Positions 2,376 through 33,739 of a DNA stretch of 64,000 nt are shown here, in pieces. A model generated the notes under the pieces. It worked only from the letters and a program-made list of their open reading frames with translations. It searched no databases and was not told where the DNA came from. The position numbers and the translations under genes are program-made. Source of the stretch: a phage. Where the stretch lies: sequence record PZ179880.1; one strand, given 5' to 3'. The stretch's first letter is position 1, and each line of letters starts with the position of its first letter.

Positions 2376-2701
2376 TTAAACCATCCTTTAATACGCTGCC
2401 ACAAAGTTTTCTGCTGAGCTTTGTTAACACCAATTGAGCGAATAACTGGTTGAGATTCCTGGAATTCTTTATAATCAGCAAGGTAAATTTCGTAAGCTGA
2501 ATCTGTAAAGGAACTTATAGCTGCCATGAAATTATTGCGAATACCTACTGGAGCATCTTTACTTTCACGAATAATCATGTATTTACCAGTCTTAATCTTT
2601 ACAATAGTTCCAAGATAAGCTCCGTGGTACCAGATGTCCCATCCCTCTTGAGTGGGTTCTGCACAACGACGAAGTTCATTGATAATTTCTAACTTGTTCA
2701 T
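2372..2701 (-). CDS. Hypothetical protein (109 aa)
   Basis: Minus-strand ORF immediately downstream of motA. Confidence 0.55.
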
Positions 2702-2711
2702 TATTTATTCC

Positions 2712-15063: not shown

Positions 15064-15552
15064 TTATGCATAGAGAGCTTTGCTATAGTGTTTAATCCAG
15101 CTTTCAGGAATGACTTTGTATGTTCCTAAAAATACCACATTATACAGCTTAACACCGTCTTCTACCCACTGATCGGTAATGTATGCGCACATAGCACGAG
15201 TATAAACAGCCGCACCATCATCTTTGATAAATTTAAATTCACAAGGAGCAATGAACTTAATAGCCTGACCGAGTTTCCACTTAAAGTCTACACCTACGTG
15301 CGAAGTATCAATCGTTTCAATTCCTTTAGCAGGAACAGCTTTCAAAAACGCAGACTCAAGAAATTTCGCGCGAACATAGCCAAACTGGGGTTTAGACTTT
15401 CCATCTTTAGGAATGATACGCACTTTTACTTCAGAATCTTCATCTTTAACACCATGTTTAAGCTGAATGCTTACAATTTCAACCAATTTTCCTGCTGCTT
15501 TAGAACGGGATTTATCAGATACACGAGCAATTTCACCAATATTAATAATCAT
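15064..15552 (-). CDS. motB: MotB (DNA-binding early protein)
   Basis: 162 aa MIINIGEIARVSDKSRSKAAGKLVEIV...; sequence and length match T4 MotB (memory). Confidence 0.9.
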   Translation of the reverse strand: MIINIGEIARVSDKSRSKAAGKLVEIVSIQLKHGVKDEDSEVKVRIIPKDGKSKPQFGYVRAKFLESAFLKAVPAKGIETIDTSHVGVDFKWKLGQAIKFIAPCEFKFIKDDGAAVYTRAMCAYITDQWVEDGVKLYNVVFLGTYKVIPESWIKHYSKALYA

Positions 15553-17670: not shown

Positions 17671-17902
17671 ATTTAATCAGCAGCTTACAGACACTTTCAT
17701 CTAGCGTAATTACCGTGTCTGTATTACTATGATATGATTGTTTTTCAATTCGTTTAATTGCTAGTATAGTATCACTTATAAGATTAAGCTTATAAAGGAG
17801 CTCAGCTCCTGTTATCATAACACTGAGGTTATCTTGCTTGTCAGTATGCTTCTTTATACCATCTATTAGACGATTTAAATATTTTGAATTGATGTTAATC
17901 AT
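17642..17902 (-). CDS. Hypothetical protein (86 aa)
   Basis: Minus-strand ORF between dda and dexA. Confidence 0.45.
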   Translation of the reverse strand: MININSKYLNRLIDGIKKHTDKQDNLSVMITGAELLYKLNLISDTILAIKRIEKQSYHSNTDTVITLDESVCKLLIKFEEAIRGNN

Positions 17903-17908
17903 ATATCC

Positions 17909-19228
17909 TCACACATAAAACACATCATAACGACCACGAGTGACACCAACATAAAGAAGCTGCTGAGCCAATTCAGCGTCTGCATAATGAATACAAGGCG
18001 TATAGATGAAAGCACGATCTACAGACATGCCCTGAGCTTTGTGGAATGTTGATGCAGGAAGTGCTTTCACTTTACTAAACTGTGATTTAGCATCCCAAAA
18101 ATCACTCCATGGAGCTTTTCCACCTTTATTCCAATTTTTATAAGTTTCTGCCGTTTTACCTAAAAATAAGTTAAACTTATACAGCTCTTCATCAGATGAA
18201 ATTATTTTAATCTTTTCACGATAATATTCATCATCGCCGTAAGTTTCTACTGTTAAATCCCAATGACGAATTAAATATTCTCCAGGAATACCACGAGCTT
18301 TAACAAATGTTGATGTATACTCTGCTTCTATAATACGAACTAATTGTCCGTTATTAAAAATAATTTCTGACACAGGCTTTCCATCAATTTTATATGTTTT
18401 AATTAATGGTTCCTGCATTACAATAATTTCACCGACAATAAAATCTTTATCAGTTTCAAAAATCTTTTTACGAATAATGCTATTTAACTTGTCAACAGAT
18501 TTATTTGTAAATGCCATTACACGATTTTCAAACAAATCATCTAGTGATTTAACGATTGAAAAATAATTTACCATAAAATCGCGTAAAGCGGTATCACCAG
18601 TAAATCCACGTACTCCATGCCCGTCAATAATTTTATCATAAATCCACTTACCGTTACGAACATCAGTAGCTACATCAATAATAGGAGCATTACTGCGTTT
18701 AACTTCGGTGAGTTCACACTGATAAAAATCTTTGTGCGTAAAGAATGGACTGATATAAGCAGTGTTTTCTCCCGGGTCAACAGGTCTAATTTGCTTATTA
18801 TCACCTATTCCAATTATAGTACACCACGGTGGAATAGTTGAAAGCAGAATTTTAAATAGCTTTCTATCATACATTGACACTTCGTCACAGATTAATACTC
18901 TACATTTAGCCAAATCTGGCACTTCTTTTTGCTCAAAAAGAACGTTTTCTTCGTATGTTACTGGGTTAATTTTAAGAATACTGTGAATAGTACTCGCTTC
19001 TTTCCCTGATAGTTTTGAAAGAATCTTTTTAGCTGCATGAGTAGGAGCTGCTAAAATAATGCCAGTTTCGCCTGTAGATATTAAAGCTTCAATGATGAAC
19101 TTAGTAAGAGTAGTCTTACCAGTACCAGCAGGTCCATTAATAGTTACATGATGTTTCTTTTCTTTAATAGCCCTCATAACGATGTTAAAGGCATTTTTCT
19201 GGCCTTCGGTCAAATCATCAAATGTCAT
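17909..19228 (-). CDS. dda: Dda DNA helicase (SF1B)
   Basis: 439 aa; MTFDDLTEGQKNAFNIV... with Walker A GPAGTGKT; matches T4 Dda (memory). Confidence 0.95.
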   Translation of the reverse strand: MTFDDLTEGQKNAFNIVMRAIKEKKHHVTINGPAGTGKTTLTKFIIEALISTGETGIILAAPTHAAKKILSKLSGKEASTIHSILKINPVTYEENVLFEQKEVPDLAKCRVLICDEVSMYDRKLFKILLSTIPPWCTIIGIGDNKQIRPVDPGENTAYISPFFTHKDFYQCELTEVKRSNAPIIDVATDVRNGKWIYDKIIDGHGVRGFTGDTALRDFMVNYFSIVKSLDDLFENRVMAFTNKSVDKLNSIIRKKIFETDKDFIVGEIIVMQEPLIKTYKIDGKPVSEIIFNNGQLVRIIEAEYTSTFVKARGIPGEYLIRHWDLTVETYGDDEYYREKIKIISSDEELYKFNLFLGKTAETYKNWNKGGKAPWSDFWDAKSQFSKVKALPASTFHKAQGMSVDRAFIYTPCIHYADAELAQQLLYVGVTRGRYDVFYV

Positions 19229-25070: not shown

Positions 25071-26410
<1,340 letters not shown>

Positions 26411-26435
26411 TATATCATCCTCAGCAATTTATTTT

Positions 26436-26464
26436 ATAATACCATAACAAGCTGAGAAAGTAAA
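26436..26464 (-). promoter_or_regulatory. T4-type early promoter upstream of the 186-aa ORF (-35 TTTACT, -10 TATTAT, TGn)
   Basis: Minus-strand GTTTACT..N17..TGGTATTAT. Confidence 0.6.
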
Positions 26465-26509
26465 CAAATTTATGAAATTTGTGATAAATATTAATTTAAA
26501 GGAGGACAT

Positions 26510-26710
26510 ATGGCACAAAAATTAATGGCACTTGTTAATGCCATCAAAGGTAATAAGAAACGTATAGCTTTTACTATTTCTGCTATGGTAGGAATTTTAC
26601 TCTGGAACTTTATTTTATCACCAATTGCAATTGCGCATGGTGTTAATATTCCAGTAGTTACTCTTGATACATTCGTAGATCTAGCATTTGCTTTAGTTGG
26701 GTTAATTTAA
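26510..26710 (+). CDS. Small membrane protein (66 aa) on the plus strand, convergent with gene 61
   Basis: Strong SD AAAGGAGG 6 nt before ATG; two hydrophobic segments; 3' end overlaps gene 61 stop by 4 nt. Confidence 0.4.
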   Translation: MAQKLMALVNAIKGNKKRIAFTISAMVGILLWNFILSPIAIAHGVNIPVVTLDTFVDLAFALVGLI

Positions 26711-27735
26711 ATCTTGGCATATTTAGATAACCGCATTTTAGCCATTAACCCCTGGGCAATATTATTTTTCATATATTCCATAATTTGTTCAGGGGTTGCA
26801 CCTTCCTTTCTAATCATATCATTAACATCTTTTGATTTCCAGGGAGATTTATCCCAAAACATAACCCTTTCTCCTGCATCAACTAATTTAGTCATTCGCT
26901 TGATAGTGTCAGGGTGACGAGGTTCATTATCTAAAACCCACACTCGTCTATCTTTAAATGGAACAACTTCTAGGTCTAATTGACCACCCGTAATAGCTAT
27001 ACCATTTTCAATAAAAAGCGAATCTATAGGTCCTTCTAGAACATATACATCACCATCTTTGACTCGTTCGACTCCATAGATTTTTGTTGCCTCAGGATAA
27101 GCTTTGATGGTGATATATTTTTGAGGAGCATCTTTCTTTAATGCACGTCCTTGAAAAGACTCAGCTTTTCCGTTAGCATTATAAATTGGAATAACAAGAC
27201 GAGGCTCAGGTGTTTCCTTTTTATATGTTCCTGGAGCTATACTATTAACTAATTTAGGCCATTCAGTTGTAAACCAAAGATATTTCCATTTATCCTTTGG
27301 AATACAACGAGCTTTTACATATTTTATAATTGGATGGTCTTCCGCCAATTTATCTAATCTGATGCATGACGGAAGAGATTTAATTATTTTCTTCTCAGGT
27401 TGTTTAGGAAGTTCTTTAGGTTTTTCTACTGGACGACTTTTACCTTTTTCTTTTCTTATTTCAAAGATATACTCACGATATAAATCAGGTTCAAACTCCT
27501 TTAAATATATTCCGATTGGTGCATGATAGTTACAGTTATAACAATGAATATTTCCTTCATTATTATCACCGTAATACCATCCACGGGCTTTATTTTGGTC
27601 GGTTTTTGAATCTCCACAAACAGGGCATCTAAACCTTAATTTAAAAGTTGAACTATTATTTACTTGTGTGAATTTAGGTAAATGAGCTAATGCACGATAT
27701 GCAAACTCATTATCAATCCAAGGTATTGATGACAT
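26707..27735 (-). CDS. 61: DNA primase gp61
   Basis: 342 aa; zinc-binding CPVCGDSKTDQNKARGWYYG...CYNCNYH; matches T4 gp61 (memory). Confidence 0.95.
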   Translation of the reverse strand: MSSIPWIDNEFAYRALAHLPKFTQVNNSSTFKLRFRCPVCGDSKTDQNKARGWYYGDNNEGNIHCYNCNYHAPIGIYLKEFEPDLYREYIFEIRKEKGKSRPVEKPKELPKQPEKKIIKSLPSCIRLDKLAEDHPIIKYVKARCIPKDKWKYLWFTTEWPKLVNSIAPGTYKKETPEPRLVIPIYNANGKAESFQGRALKKDAPQKYITIKAYPEATKIYGVERVKDGDVYVLEGPIDSLFIENGIAITGGQLDLEVVPFKDRRVWVLDNEPRHPDTIKRMTKLVDAGERVMFWDKSPWKSKDVNDMIRKEGATPEQIMEYMKNNIAQGLMAKMRLSKYAKI

Positions 27736-27903: not shown

Positions 27904-28260
27904 TTAACCTCTATTCATAAAAGCATTAAAAATTTGGTCATCAATCGATGGAATAGCAATCTTTTCTGCGTCATTTAGCAAATCATTAATTTCATCAGAT
28001 AGCATAACACATGTACCTTTATTTCCTGTAATTGTTACTGCACAATTACGAACGTTTTCTTTATCAAATTTTAGGTTAATATTTTCGTAATGAAAATCCT
28101 TTAATGCCGAATATATTTTTAAAATGAAATTGTCTTTTACTACAATAAAACCGACTTCACTGTTAAAACGCGGCTCATGAAAACTGTAATAAACCTTTTC
28201 ATCTATAAAATCGTATGAAATTTTTTCCATTTTTAAATAAGAAAATTCAGAACTATACAT
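27904..28260 (-). CDS. Hypothetical protein (118 aa), 61.1 position
   Basis: Minus-strand ORF between sp and 61. Confidence 0.5.
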   Translation of the reverse strand: MYSSEFSYLKMEKISYDFIDEKVYYSFHEPRFNSEVGFIVVKDNFILKIYSALKDFHYENINLKFDKENVRNCAVTITGNKGTCVMLSDEINDLLNDAEKIAIPSIDDQIFNAFMNRG

Positions 28261-32159: not shown

Positions 32160-33002
32160 TTAATCAACTGCTATCGGATGAATAGCATTAAACTTATGAA
32201 ATGCTTCTGATTTTTCTTTGCGCGAAACACACATGCGAAGAACCTTTAATGGCTCGTCTTCTTCACCCAACGATTTTCGTTTTTCGATATTAGAAGTTTT
32301 CCAACGAGCTTGCTCTGGAAACTCTCTATTGATTTGCTCAAGCGCTCTATTATGTTTAGAATTACTACGAATTGAACTGCACCCGCCAGGAGCTTGTGCT
32401 TTTCCAGATACAACCAGATATTTGAACAAGGCCAAATGCGGATAACCTTGATTAATTAAATTGAGAAATGCATACATATCTTCGCATAAATCAATTTTTC
32501 CATACCCAATTTGTTCTGTTGTAAGTTTTCCAAGGTCATACCATGTATTCGTGAATCCATATGAATTTTCACGATAATTACCCCAAGATGAAGTAATTTT
32601 AAAAATAGGTAGACGAGCATGGCCATGATAATACCCGCAATCCATGGCATCTTCAACGTATTGAATTAATTCATAGAACTGTTCACGGGTTAATTGATTA
32701 ATTTTATCTACGCAGCGACGATCATCTTTCTTTCGCATTGAACTCATACGAATAGTAGTATCATCATCGATCATCCAAATTCGCTGACCTGCATACATAT
32801 CAGTAATTGCTTTACGAGTTCCAGCAATTCCATTAACATCATCAGGAATAGTTATAATTTTAGCTCTAGACCCATAAGCGTCATAATAAGCTTTTTCTTC
32901 GTGTTTACGTACTACAATATGAGGTTCATAATCAGATGGAAACATATCAAGGGCAGAAACTGCCCCTACGCGTTGATAGCTTGGAATTACGAATTGAATC
33001 AT
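32160..33002 (-). CDS. GT-A fold glycosyltransferase at the beta-gt locus; likely the T2/T6-type beta-glucosyl-HMC alpha-glucosyltransferase
   Basis: 280 aa from first ATG (track start GTG); DxD motif WMIDDDTTI; ATGA-coupled to gene 42 stop. Confidence 0.6.
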   Translation of the reverse strand: MIQFVIPSYQRVGAVSALDMFPSDYEPHIVVRKHEEKAYYDAYGSRAKIITIPDDVNGIAGTRKAITDMYAGQRIWMIDDDTTIRMSSMRKKDDRRCVDKINQLTREQFYELIQYVEDAMDCGYYHGHARLPIFKITSSWGNYRENSYGFTNTWYDLGKLTTEQIGYGKIDLCEDMYAFLNLINQGYPHLALFKYLVVSGKAQAPGGCSSIRSNSKHNRALEQINREFPEQARWKTSNIEKRKSLGEEDEPLKVLRMCVSRKEKSEAFHKFNAIHPIAVD

Positions 33003-33739
33003 TTCCACTCACCGTTATAATCTTTTTTCGCAATATGAGTTTCGCCAGTTTTCCACCAATGGTCAACCAAGTAAAAATGACGGGAATACACATGAAGACT
33101 TCCGACATTCCATATAATGGAACCCGCTTTATACTGGCGAGTTGAATCACCTGCATTCAAATCAGATACTAATTTATCTAGTACGTATTTTTGCCACGCA
33201 TAATCATTGCGGAATCCGAAGACCACGTCATTTGAGCGCATGTTAACTACTGCATTGACTTTCTTATCACGAATCAGATACTGTACTGTATTCGTACACA
33301 TGAAATCTGACATACCATCTTTATTGTAGTCAAACTGCATGGATGGACGAGTATAAATCATGATACCACGCCGAGAATCAGGATTTTGACCAAGTTCAGC
33401 TAAACACATATCATACTGGGCATAGTTATCTTCTGACCAAATAGCCCAACCATAATTCGAGTTAATTTCGCCTTTAGAAGATGCTACCTGCTGCCAAATC
33501 TTTGGTGTTTCACCTGGAATATCTTTAACAAACAAGCTCTTAGATTTATACCATTCAAGTTCGCGCTGAATGTATTCATCATTAAGAGCACCAAAAATAA
33601 ACGGTTCATCTGCTACAAATGATGCGCCAATAATTTCAATAGTTTTAACACCAGTTTTATCAACTACGAAATCTTTTTCTTTTAATGCAAGCCCCAAATG
33701 AAGACGGATTTCTTCAACTGTCATAGAGTCATTAATCAT
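32999..33739 (-). CDS. 42: dCMP hydroxymethylase gp42
   Basis: 246 aa MINDSMTVEEIRLHLGLALKEKDFVVDKTG... matches T4 gp42 (memory). Confidence 0.95.
   Translation of the reverse strand: MINDSMTVEEIRLHLGLALKEKDFVVDKTGVKTIEIIGASFVADEPFIFGALNDEYIQRELEWYKSKSLFVKDIPGETPKIWQQVASSKGEINSNYGWAIWSEDNYAQYDMCLAELGQNPDSRRGIMIYTRPSMQFDYNKDGMSDFMCTNTVQYLIRDKKVNAVVNMRSNDVVFGFRNDYAWQKYVLDKLVSDLNAGDSTRQYKAGSIIWNVGSLHVYSRHFYLVDHWWKTGETHIAKKDYNGEWK

Follow-up and report, generated by a model that had tools for sequence, protein, structure and literature searches.

Gene order and sequence features of the locus

The DNA analysed here is a stretch of 64,000 nucleotides of phage sequence (record PZ179880.1), which we call the window. 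Around the locus described, the minus strand carries in order the genes for gp56 dCTPase, dam, an extra 186-aa gene and primase gene 61, while a small ORF encoding 66 aa occupies the plus strand. The dam product has 259 aa and matches Pfam MethyltransfD12 (E=6.5e-51). Over 25800-26800, Yersinia phage ZN18 and Escherichia phage a51 show 100% identity to the window, and about 500 Tequatrovirus records reach 90% or more. The features of the locus are the following:

26464 to 26436, minus strand: early-type sigma-70 promoter (GTTTAC-17-TGgTATTAT), predicted to serve the 186-aa gene and dam
26483-26490, plus strand: late-promoter-like box GATAAATA, ending 19 nt before the ATG, with G at -13
26496..26498, plus strand: predicted transcription start, 6-8 nt past the box, from the -13 to -6 definition (PMC1524935)
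26498-26505, plus strand: Shine-Dalgarno (SD) element AAAGGAGG, 4 nt (ACAT) from the ATG of the 66-aa ORF
26510..26710, plus strand: 66-aa ORF with ATG start, encoding a small hydrophobic protein (phrog_2024, subfamily a)
26522..26547, minus strand: hairpin followed by a U-run (UUUUUGU), within codons 5-13 of the ORF
26707..26710: tail-to-tail overlap of the 66-aa ORF and gene 61, with both stop codons within 4 nt
26707..27735, minus strand: primase gene 61 (342 aa), whose stop overlaps that of the 66-aa ORF

Both the plus-strand ORF of 66 aa starting at an ATG and the overlap of 4 nt between its stop codon and that of gene 61 had been described in the initial annotation of this DNA, and we recovered them at 26510..26710 and at the end of gene 61 (26707, minus strand). 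The ribosome-binding site proposed there is also present, as AAAGGAGG at 26498-26505, but its spacer is 4 nt (ACAT) and not the 6 nt that had been given; a 6-nt spacer is what T4 has. Ahead of all first-copy orthologs there is a GGAGG or AAGGAG element. It had further been claimed that, holin gene t aside, this is the only plus-strand ORF of the window with a convincing ribosome-binding site. Among the plus-strand ATG ORFs of at least 40 aa in the window it is indeed the only one with a 7-nt SD match; the part of the claim that concerns t does not stand, as the window begins within this gene and its start and ribosome-binding site fall outside. The sole other plus-strand ATG ORF of this size with a 5-nt SD match encodes 69 aa (32936-33145); its element is weak (GAGGT, spacing 10) and it looks like an antisense chance ORF.

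The 186-aa gene (25850-26410, minus strand), located between dam and the 66-aa ORF, is absent from T4. It gave weak matches to restriction enzymes (Pfam DpnII, E=0.0045, below the cut-off; PADLOC REase_II, E=9e-5), matches phrog_8706 and bears the name 'putative DpnII restriction endonuclease' in phage Shinka. The gene of the GATC methylase Dam would have a GATC-type nuclease-like gene as its direct neighbour. Out of 504 matching records, 146 cover at least 80% of the 1-kb query containing this gene.

Conservation, subfamilies and selection

By tblastn, the 66-aa ORF was found in 693 phage records; in 687 of these the match covers 80% or more of the ORF. Identity is 89% or more in about 500 records and 44-56% in about 190, the latter from Mosigvirus and Gaprivervirus. 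The ORF adjoins the primase gene in every record inspected, and it lies on the plus strand, tail-to-tail with gene 61, in the window, T4, RB69, ST0, VR25, JS98, Marfa and a metagenomic relative (L024). The 4-nt overlap with gene 61 recurs in T4, RB69, JS98, the second copy of VR25 (VR25b) and Marfa, and amounts to 14 nt in L024.

A profile search gathered 104 protein clusters, mostly of 65-66 aa with a few truncated or longer members, that cover Tequatrovirus, Mosigvirus, Gaprivervirus, Dhakavirus and T4-like phages of Klebsiella; Klebsiella phages Marfa, Potts1 and pzk-kv8 and Yersinia phage P8 are among them. The clusters fall into two subfamilies, one (a) with T4, RB69 and copy 1 of VR25 and the other (b) with JS98, copy 2 of VR25 and Marfa, which share about 25% identity and a common protein motif. 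Four residues of the family alignment (W32, N33, P38 and G44) never vary, and three more (P48, V50 and G64) hardly do. The Gaprivervirus VR25 has both subfamilies in tandem (L006 2495-2692 and 2701-2901). Its second copy has its own ribosome-binding site of GGTGGA type and no separate ATAAATA box, therefore the two copies are probably co-transcribed. In the Krischvirus RB49 no family member was found at the syntenic site, where genes 56 and 61 abut, which indicates that the family is not universal in T4-like phages.

Selection was evaluated in four phylogenetically separate close pairs, in which pN/pS ranges from 0.15 to 0.42 and the differences concentrate at third codon positions. The pooled pairs contain 51 nonsynonymous and 67 synonymous differences, against a neutral expectation of 76% nonsynonymous (binomial p=4.6e-14). 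Between genera synonymous sites are saturated and dN is about 0.46, with 46-56% amino-acid identity and the length of the protein kept. These patterns indicate that the 66-aa ORF is a real protein-coding gene under purifying selection. Conservation and Ka/Ks across T-even genomes had been named beforehand among the ways to check the ORF, and the reading frame, intact over at least 80% of its length in 687 of 693 records, and the pN/pS values given above both speak for it.

Database and annotation status

The gene is already catalogued. The protein matches the phrog_2024 HMM of PHROGs v4 (E=1.6e-31, 108.9 bits, residues 3-66 against positions 2-65 of 65), as do all 36 relatives sampled, and in RB69 the gene is RB69ORF029w, with the same position and strand beside the primase gene; further copies stand in hundreds of records as hypothetical proteins. 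The 66-aa ORF is thus a direct member of phrog_2024, a family of no known function from which it shows no difference. All clusters are named 'hypothetical' except one 'Holin' (UniRef) and one 'DNA packaging ATPase', and several records label the product 'putative membrane protein'.

In the T4 reference records (NC_000866, AF158101) the ortholog is intact yet unannotated at 17738..17938 on the plus strand (L004 3239-3439), and the same occurs in JS98 (NC_010105), at 15343..15543 on the plus strand (L019 3344-3544). A search of the literature on T4 Ribo-seq, transcription start sites and CRISPRi, and for the RB69 ORF name, returned no characterisation of the gene, nor does the locus appear in the HIDEN-SEQ and CRISPRi-ART papers. 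CRISPRi-ART targets were limited to annotated CDSs (PMC11879866). Since the T4 reference omits the gene, genome-wide screens based on annotation could not have caught it.

A probable late-type promoter ahead of the ORF

T4 late promoters consist of a TATAAATA box at -13 to -6 and lack a -35 element (PMC2988020, PMC1524935). Position -13 is the least conserved of the box: in T4 it is occupied by A at 9 of 50 sites, and relatives have either A or T there (PMC2988020, PMC1524935). A G at this position is a rarer variant than A (PMC2988020). The presence of a motif resembling a late promoter about 20 nt upstream of the ORF had been noted from the start, and it is borne out by GATAAATA, which ends 19 nt before the ATG. 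An A/T-rich stretch, TTAATTT, follows directly 3' of this box, as expected of a T4-type late promoter.

A NATAAATA box begins 24-30 nt ahead of the ATG in every first-copy ortholog. The base at -13 is G in T4 and the window, C in VR25 and TH40, T in Marfa, and A in RB69, ST0, JS98, L010 (a second Tequatrovirus upstream context) and L024, and these variants match those described at late promoters of T4 relatives (PMC2988020, PMC1524935). In Klebsiella phage Marfa the ortholog is preceded by a perfect TATAAATA. When seven lineages are aligned on the box, the ATAAATA core is 100% identical, whereas pairwise identity drops to 26% in the 20 nt upstream and to 34% in the 20 nt downstream. Box, SD element and ORF are kept as one module although what lies upstream differs: the neighbour is the 186-aa gene in the window, dam in T4, a 93-aa gene in Marfa, and gene 56 in each of RB69, JS98 and VR25.

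The heptamer itself is scarce. Counting both strands, the 64-kb window contains four copies of ATAAATA against 40.5 +/- 6.9 expected from dinucleotide-preserving shuffles, a depletion of about 10-fold that suggests selection against stray late promoters in the early/middle region. On the plus strand of the window the heptamer occurs just once, before the 66-aa ORF. Two other copies belong to a TATAAATA located 29 nt before soc and to a AATAAATA located 33 nt before gene 49; soc and gene 49 are known late-promoter genes. The remaining copy, a AATAAATA at 2701-2708 (minus strand), straddles the end of a 211-aa motA-like ORF, directly beside the start codon (ATG) of a following 109-aa ORF; it may be a late promoter, or it may merely reflect constraint from coding sequence or a ribosome-binding site. 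The late units of soc and gene 49 and the putative one of the 66-aa ORF have in common the ATAAATA core, the A/T-rich stretch, a short leader and an SD element, and they differ in the distance from box to ATG, which at 19 nt is shorter at the 66-aa ORF. Compared with these and other T4 late units, the 66-aa ORF has the rarer G at -13 and stands as a lone small gene, tail-to-tail with its neighbour, within an early/middle region.

From the predicted start the leader would be very short (12-14 nt; about 10-16 nt overall), and the SD element is unpaired in the predicted RNA fold of the transcript 5' end. In the portion searched of the late-promoter prediction for RB69 by Nolan et al., no site was listed at the locus of the ORF. 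In the same phage, a predicted middle promoter of gene 56 (Pm:16038) abuts the AATAAATA box. Considering that the core is identical in seven lineages while its flanks are at chance level, and that the heptamer is depleted in the window, a T4-type, gp55-dependent late promoter ahead of the 66-aa ORF is strongly supported at the level of sequence. The proposal of a translated small membrane protein made from a late-type promoter finds strong comparative backing in purifying selection, conservation of the box and depletion of the heptamer.

Divergent predicted promoters and a minus-strand hairpin

The early promoter at 26436-26464, which had been recognised earlier, was confirmed on the minus strand as GTTTAC-17-TGgTATTAT, and in phage JB75 a promoter is annotated at the equivalent place. 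This promoter, directed leftward, lies 18 nt upstream of the late box, which is directed rightward, so that both stand back-to-back and diverge. The earlier idea that plus-strand transcription is antisense to the early promoter is thus wrong, given that the RNA never crosses it. Plus-strand RNA from the predicted late promoter would instead be antisense to gene 61 and to the gene 61 3' end. No plus-strand terminator-like site was found downstream of the ORF up to position 28000 in the window, nor in RB69 or Marfa. With both stop codons overlapping and no such terminator seen, a late RNA would have to run antisense into gene 61.

On the minus strand, a hairpin followed by a U-run is encoded within the ORF at 26522-26547, about 160 nt past the gene 61 stop. 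It has a dG of -12.4 kcal/mol (z=-3.8), none of 200 shuffles folds as well, and it is strand-specific, the G-U pairs being those of the minus strand. Gene 61 transcripts might use it as an intrinsic terminator; if these end at 26547-26522 they would overlap the ORF, and no dedicated sRNA was found. A hairpin of this type was not detected in RB69 or Marfa. It is accordingly either specific to a lineage or due to chance, and it does not explain the conservation of the ORF.

Predicted protein and topology

The 66-aa protein is hydrophobic, as had been anticipated, with a GRAVY of 1.21 and Kyte-Doolittle values (19-residue windows) above 1.6 over approximately residues 18-45 and in windows 45-63, 47-65 and 48-66. 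AlphaFold2, run on a 36-sequence alignment, gave a model with a mean pLDDT of 79 and helices at 2-13, 16-42 and 52-63, with a loop at 43-51. Positive charges (K4, K13, K16, K17, R18) precede the long helix, and D53 and D57 lie toward the C-terminus, which reads DLAFALVGLI; D57 is the last charged residue, and the same lack of charge is seen in both subfamilies. The tryptic peptide IAFTISAMVGILLWNFILSPIAIAHGVNIPVVTLDTFVDLAFALVGLI is hard to detect by mass spectrometry.

In the model the protein probably comprises one long transmembrane helix with the invariant Trp-Asn pair at mid-membrane, followed by a short C-terminal hydrophobic helix. Two transmembrane segments had been predicted initially; AlphaFold2 gives one long helix (16-42) and a short one (52-63), so that this prediction holds only in part. 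With a second helix of just about 12 residues, a two-pass hairpin is less favoured, though possible. The most economical topology would be an N-in protein with a single span, whose C-terminal helix sits at the outer face or dips into it. A polar Asn in a membrane helix often drives helix-helix association, and the Trp-Asn pair suggests, on the basis of the model, that the protein acts in this way, with itself or with a membrane partner. Cleavage by signal peptidase after P38-IAIA42 was considered and rejected: with about 24 residues the hydrophobic core is long, and RB69 and subfamily b do not preserve the AXA-like motif.

Searches for a function gave no match for the protein in Pfam, NCBIfam or PADLOC, and only noise (E>=0.5) in a sequence profile search against PDB. 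Foldseek against BFVD returned its own ortholog and two unnamed 63-aa phage proteins (E about 0.2), nothing else, and no Rfam family was found at the locus. With phmmer, 1.84 billion representatives yielded members of the family and, in addition, three long repeat proteins (P0032, P0036 and P0037), whose matches were judged spurious, being short hydrophobic motifs added up across many repeats. The core 'LLWNF..SP.A.A.GV' resembles a PQQ/beta-propeller-like repeat of P0037 (1255 aa), 'ALLWNFTTG...SSPAVANGVVY', a likeness that we judge to be a chance similarity inflated by repeats.

Discussion

We propose that the 66-aa ORF is a genuine coding gene that forms a late transcription unit by itself, on the strand opposite to the early/middle genes around it, a reading to which we assign a probability of about 0.8. 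Early and middle transcripts of T4 are all of one polarity while late ones are of either polarity (PMC2988020), and the early/middle polarity corresponds to the minus strand of the window. Late in infection, host RNA polymerase with the phage late sigma gp55, together with gp33 and the gp45 clamp, would start about 6 nt past GATAAATA, and the very short leader with its strong, unpaired SD element would allow the 66-aa product to be made. This product would enter the inner membrane, where, according to the predicted topology, the amphipathic N-terminal helix (residues 2-13), which is positively charged and has KKR after it at 16-18, would stay cytoplasmic, helix 16-42 would span the membrane, and after a short loop with conserved Gly and Pro the C-terminal helix 52-63 would sit at the periplasmic face or re-enter it. 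The Trp-Asn pair in the middle of the long helix would mediate helix-helix association, with another copy of the protein or with a different membrane protein. Our best guess for its role, held with low confidence, is that of a non-catalytic modulator acting in a late membrane event, with the timing or inhibition of lysis and membrane-bound prohead assembly as candidates. As a side effect, late antisense RNA may secondarily dampen primase mRNA.

A different possibility is that the RNA is the main product, a late antisense transcript to the 3' part of gene 61 that shuts down the primase, with the ORF being incidental. The 4-nt tail-to-tail overlap kept in T4, RB69, JS98, VR25b and Marfa is in line with it, as is the lack of a plus-strand terminator-like site after the ORF in the window, RB69 and Marfa, and T4 has sites where both strands are transcribed, each at a different time (PMC2988020). 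However, an incidental ORF would not give pN/pS values of 0.15-0.42 (p=5e-14), nor would it preserve a nearly constant length of 65-66 aa, the invariant W-N, P and G residues and a strong SD element across genera whose synonymous sites are saturated. We consider this reading unlikely. Antisense action on primase mRNA may exist, yet only in a secondary role; selection at the protein level means that it cannot be the main function.

It is also conceivable, with a still smaller likelihood, that the gene encodes a pore former similar to holins or type I toxins, which the overlapping gene 61 transcript silences earlier in infection. A small hydrophobic protein with putative late expression and an invariant polar Asn in its membrane helix would fit such a role, one ortholog has a UniProt entry named 'Holin', and gene 61 transcripts ending at 26547-26522 would cover nearly the whole ORF in antisense. 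Holins and antiholins (class II S21-like; T and RI of T4) are likewise small inner-membrane proteins with a polar residue in a membrane helix, and late expression would be shared as well. Consistent with a holin, the protein has at least one predicted transmembrane domain (helix 16-42, hydropathy above 1.6). In contrast to holins, a charged hydrophilic C-terminal domain is lacking in both subfamilies, the protein ending in ...ALVGLI. Primase, the 186-aa REase-like gene and dam surround the ORF, with no adjacent endolysin or spanin gene and no linkage to lysis genes, and neither sequence nor fold matches a named holin. Moreover, T4 already has holin T, whose gene lies at the start of the window, and no experimental support was found for the name 'Holin'. 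Type I toxins (Hok, Ldr, TisB) share with the 66-aa protein the tiny hydrophobic product and, should gene 61 transcripts reach as far as the hairpin, would share an mRNA overlapped by a convergent transcript; they differ in that the overlapping RNA at this locus would be primase mRNA and not a dedicated sRNA, and no family match was obtained beyond Pfam Ldr_toxin in one of 36 members (E=0.1).

That the ORF arose by chance and is conserved through constraint on the other strand (the gene 61 3' UTR or terminator, or the promoters of dam or 56) could draw on the strong minus-strand hairpin inside it and on the predicted middle promoter of RB69 gene 56 (Pm:16038) next to the AATAAATA box, but RB69 and Marfa keep the ORF without the hairpin, substitutions are codon-structured, and two subfamilies and the VR25 tandem pair maintain the protein motif at about 25% identity, so this reading is effectively refuted by selection and the conserved motif and hardly credible.

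Returning to the late membrane protein that we favour, a stronger version of it would be a late-acting T-even membrane factor with an infection phenotype, whose mRNA doubles as an antisense silencer of the primase. We regard this version as rather improbable; if true, the protein could, for example, join with holin T or antiholin RI to tune the timing or inhibition of lysis, or serve as a membrane anchor for prohead assembly.

The biology is ordinary, that of a small hypothetical membrane protein behind a standard phage promoter, and the finding is useful as a correction of annotation with modest novelty. Few genomes have been studied as closely as that of T4, and still a conserved ORF under selection is missing from its reference records, and annotation-led screens and proteomic or transcriptomic analyses skip it in this phage. 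Furthermore, the gene may serve as a simple test case for non-consensus late promoters (G, A or C at -13) in vivo. With its annotation T4 would gain one more late gene, among the very few on the plus strand in the early/middle region.
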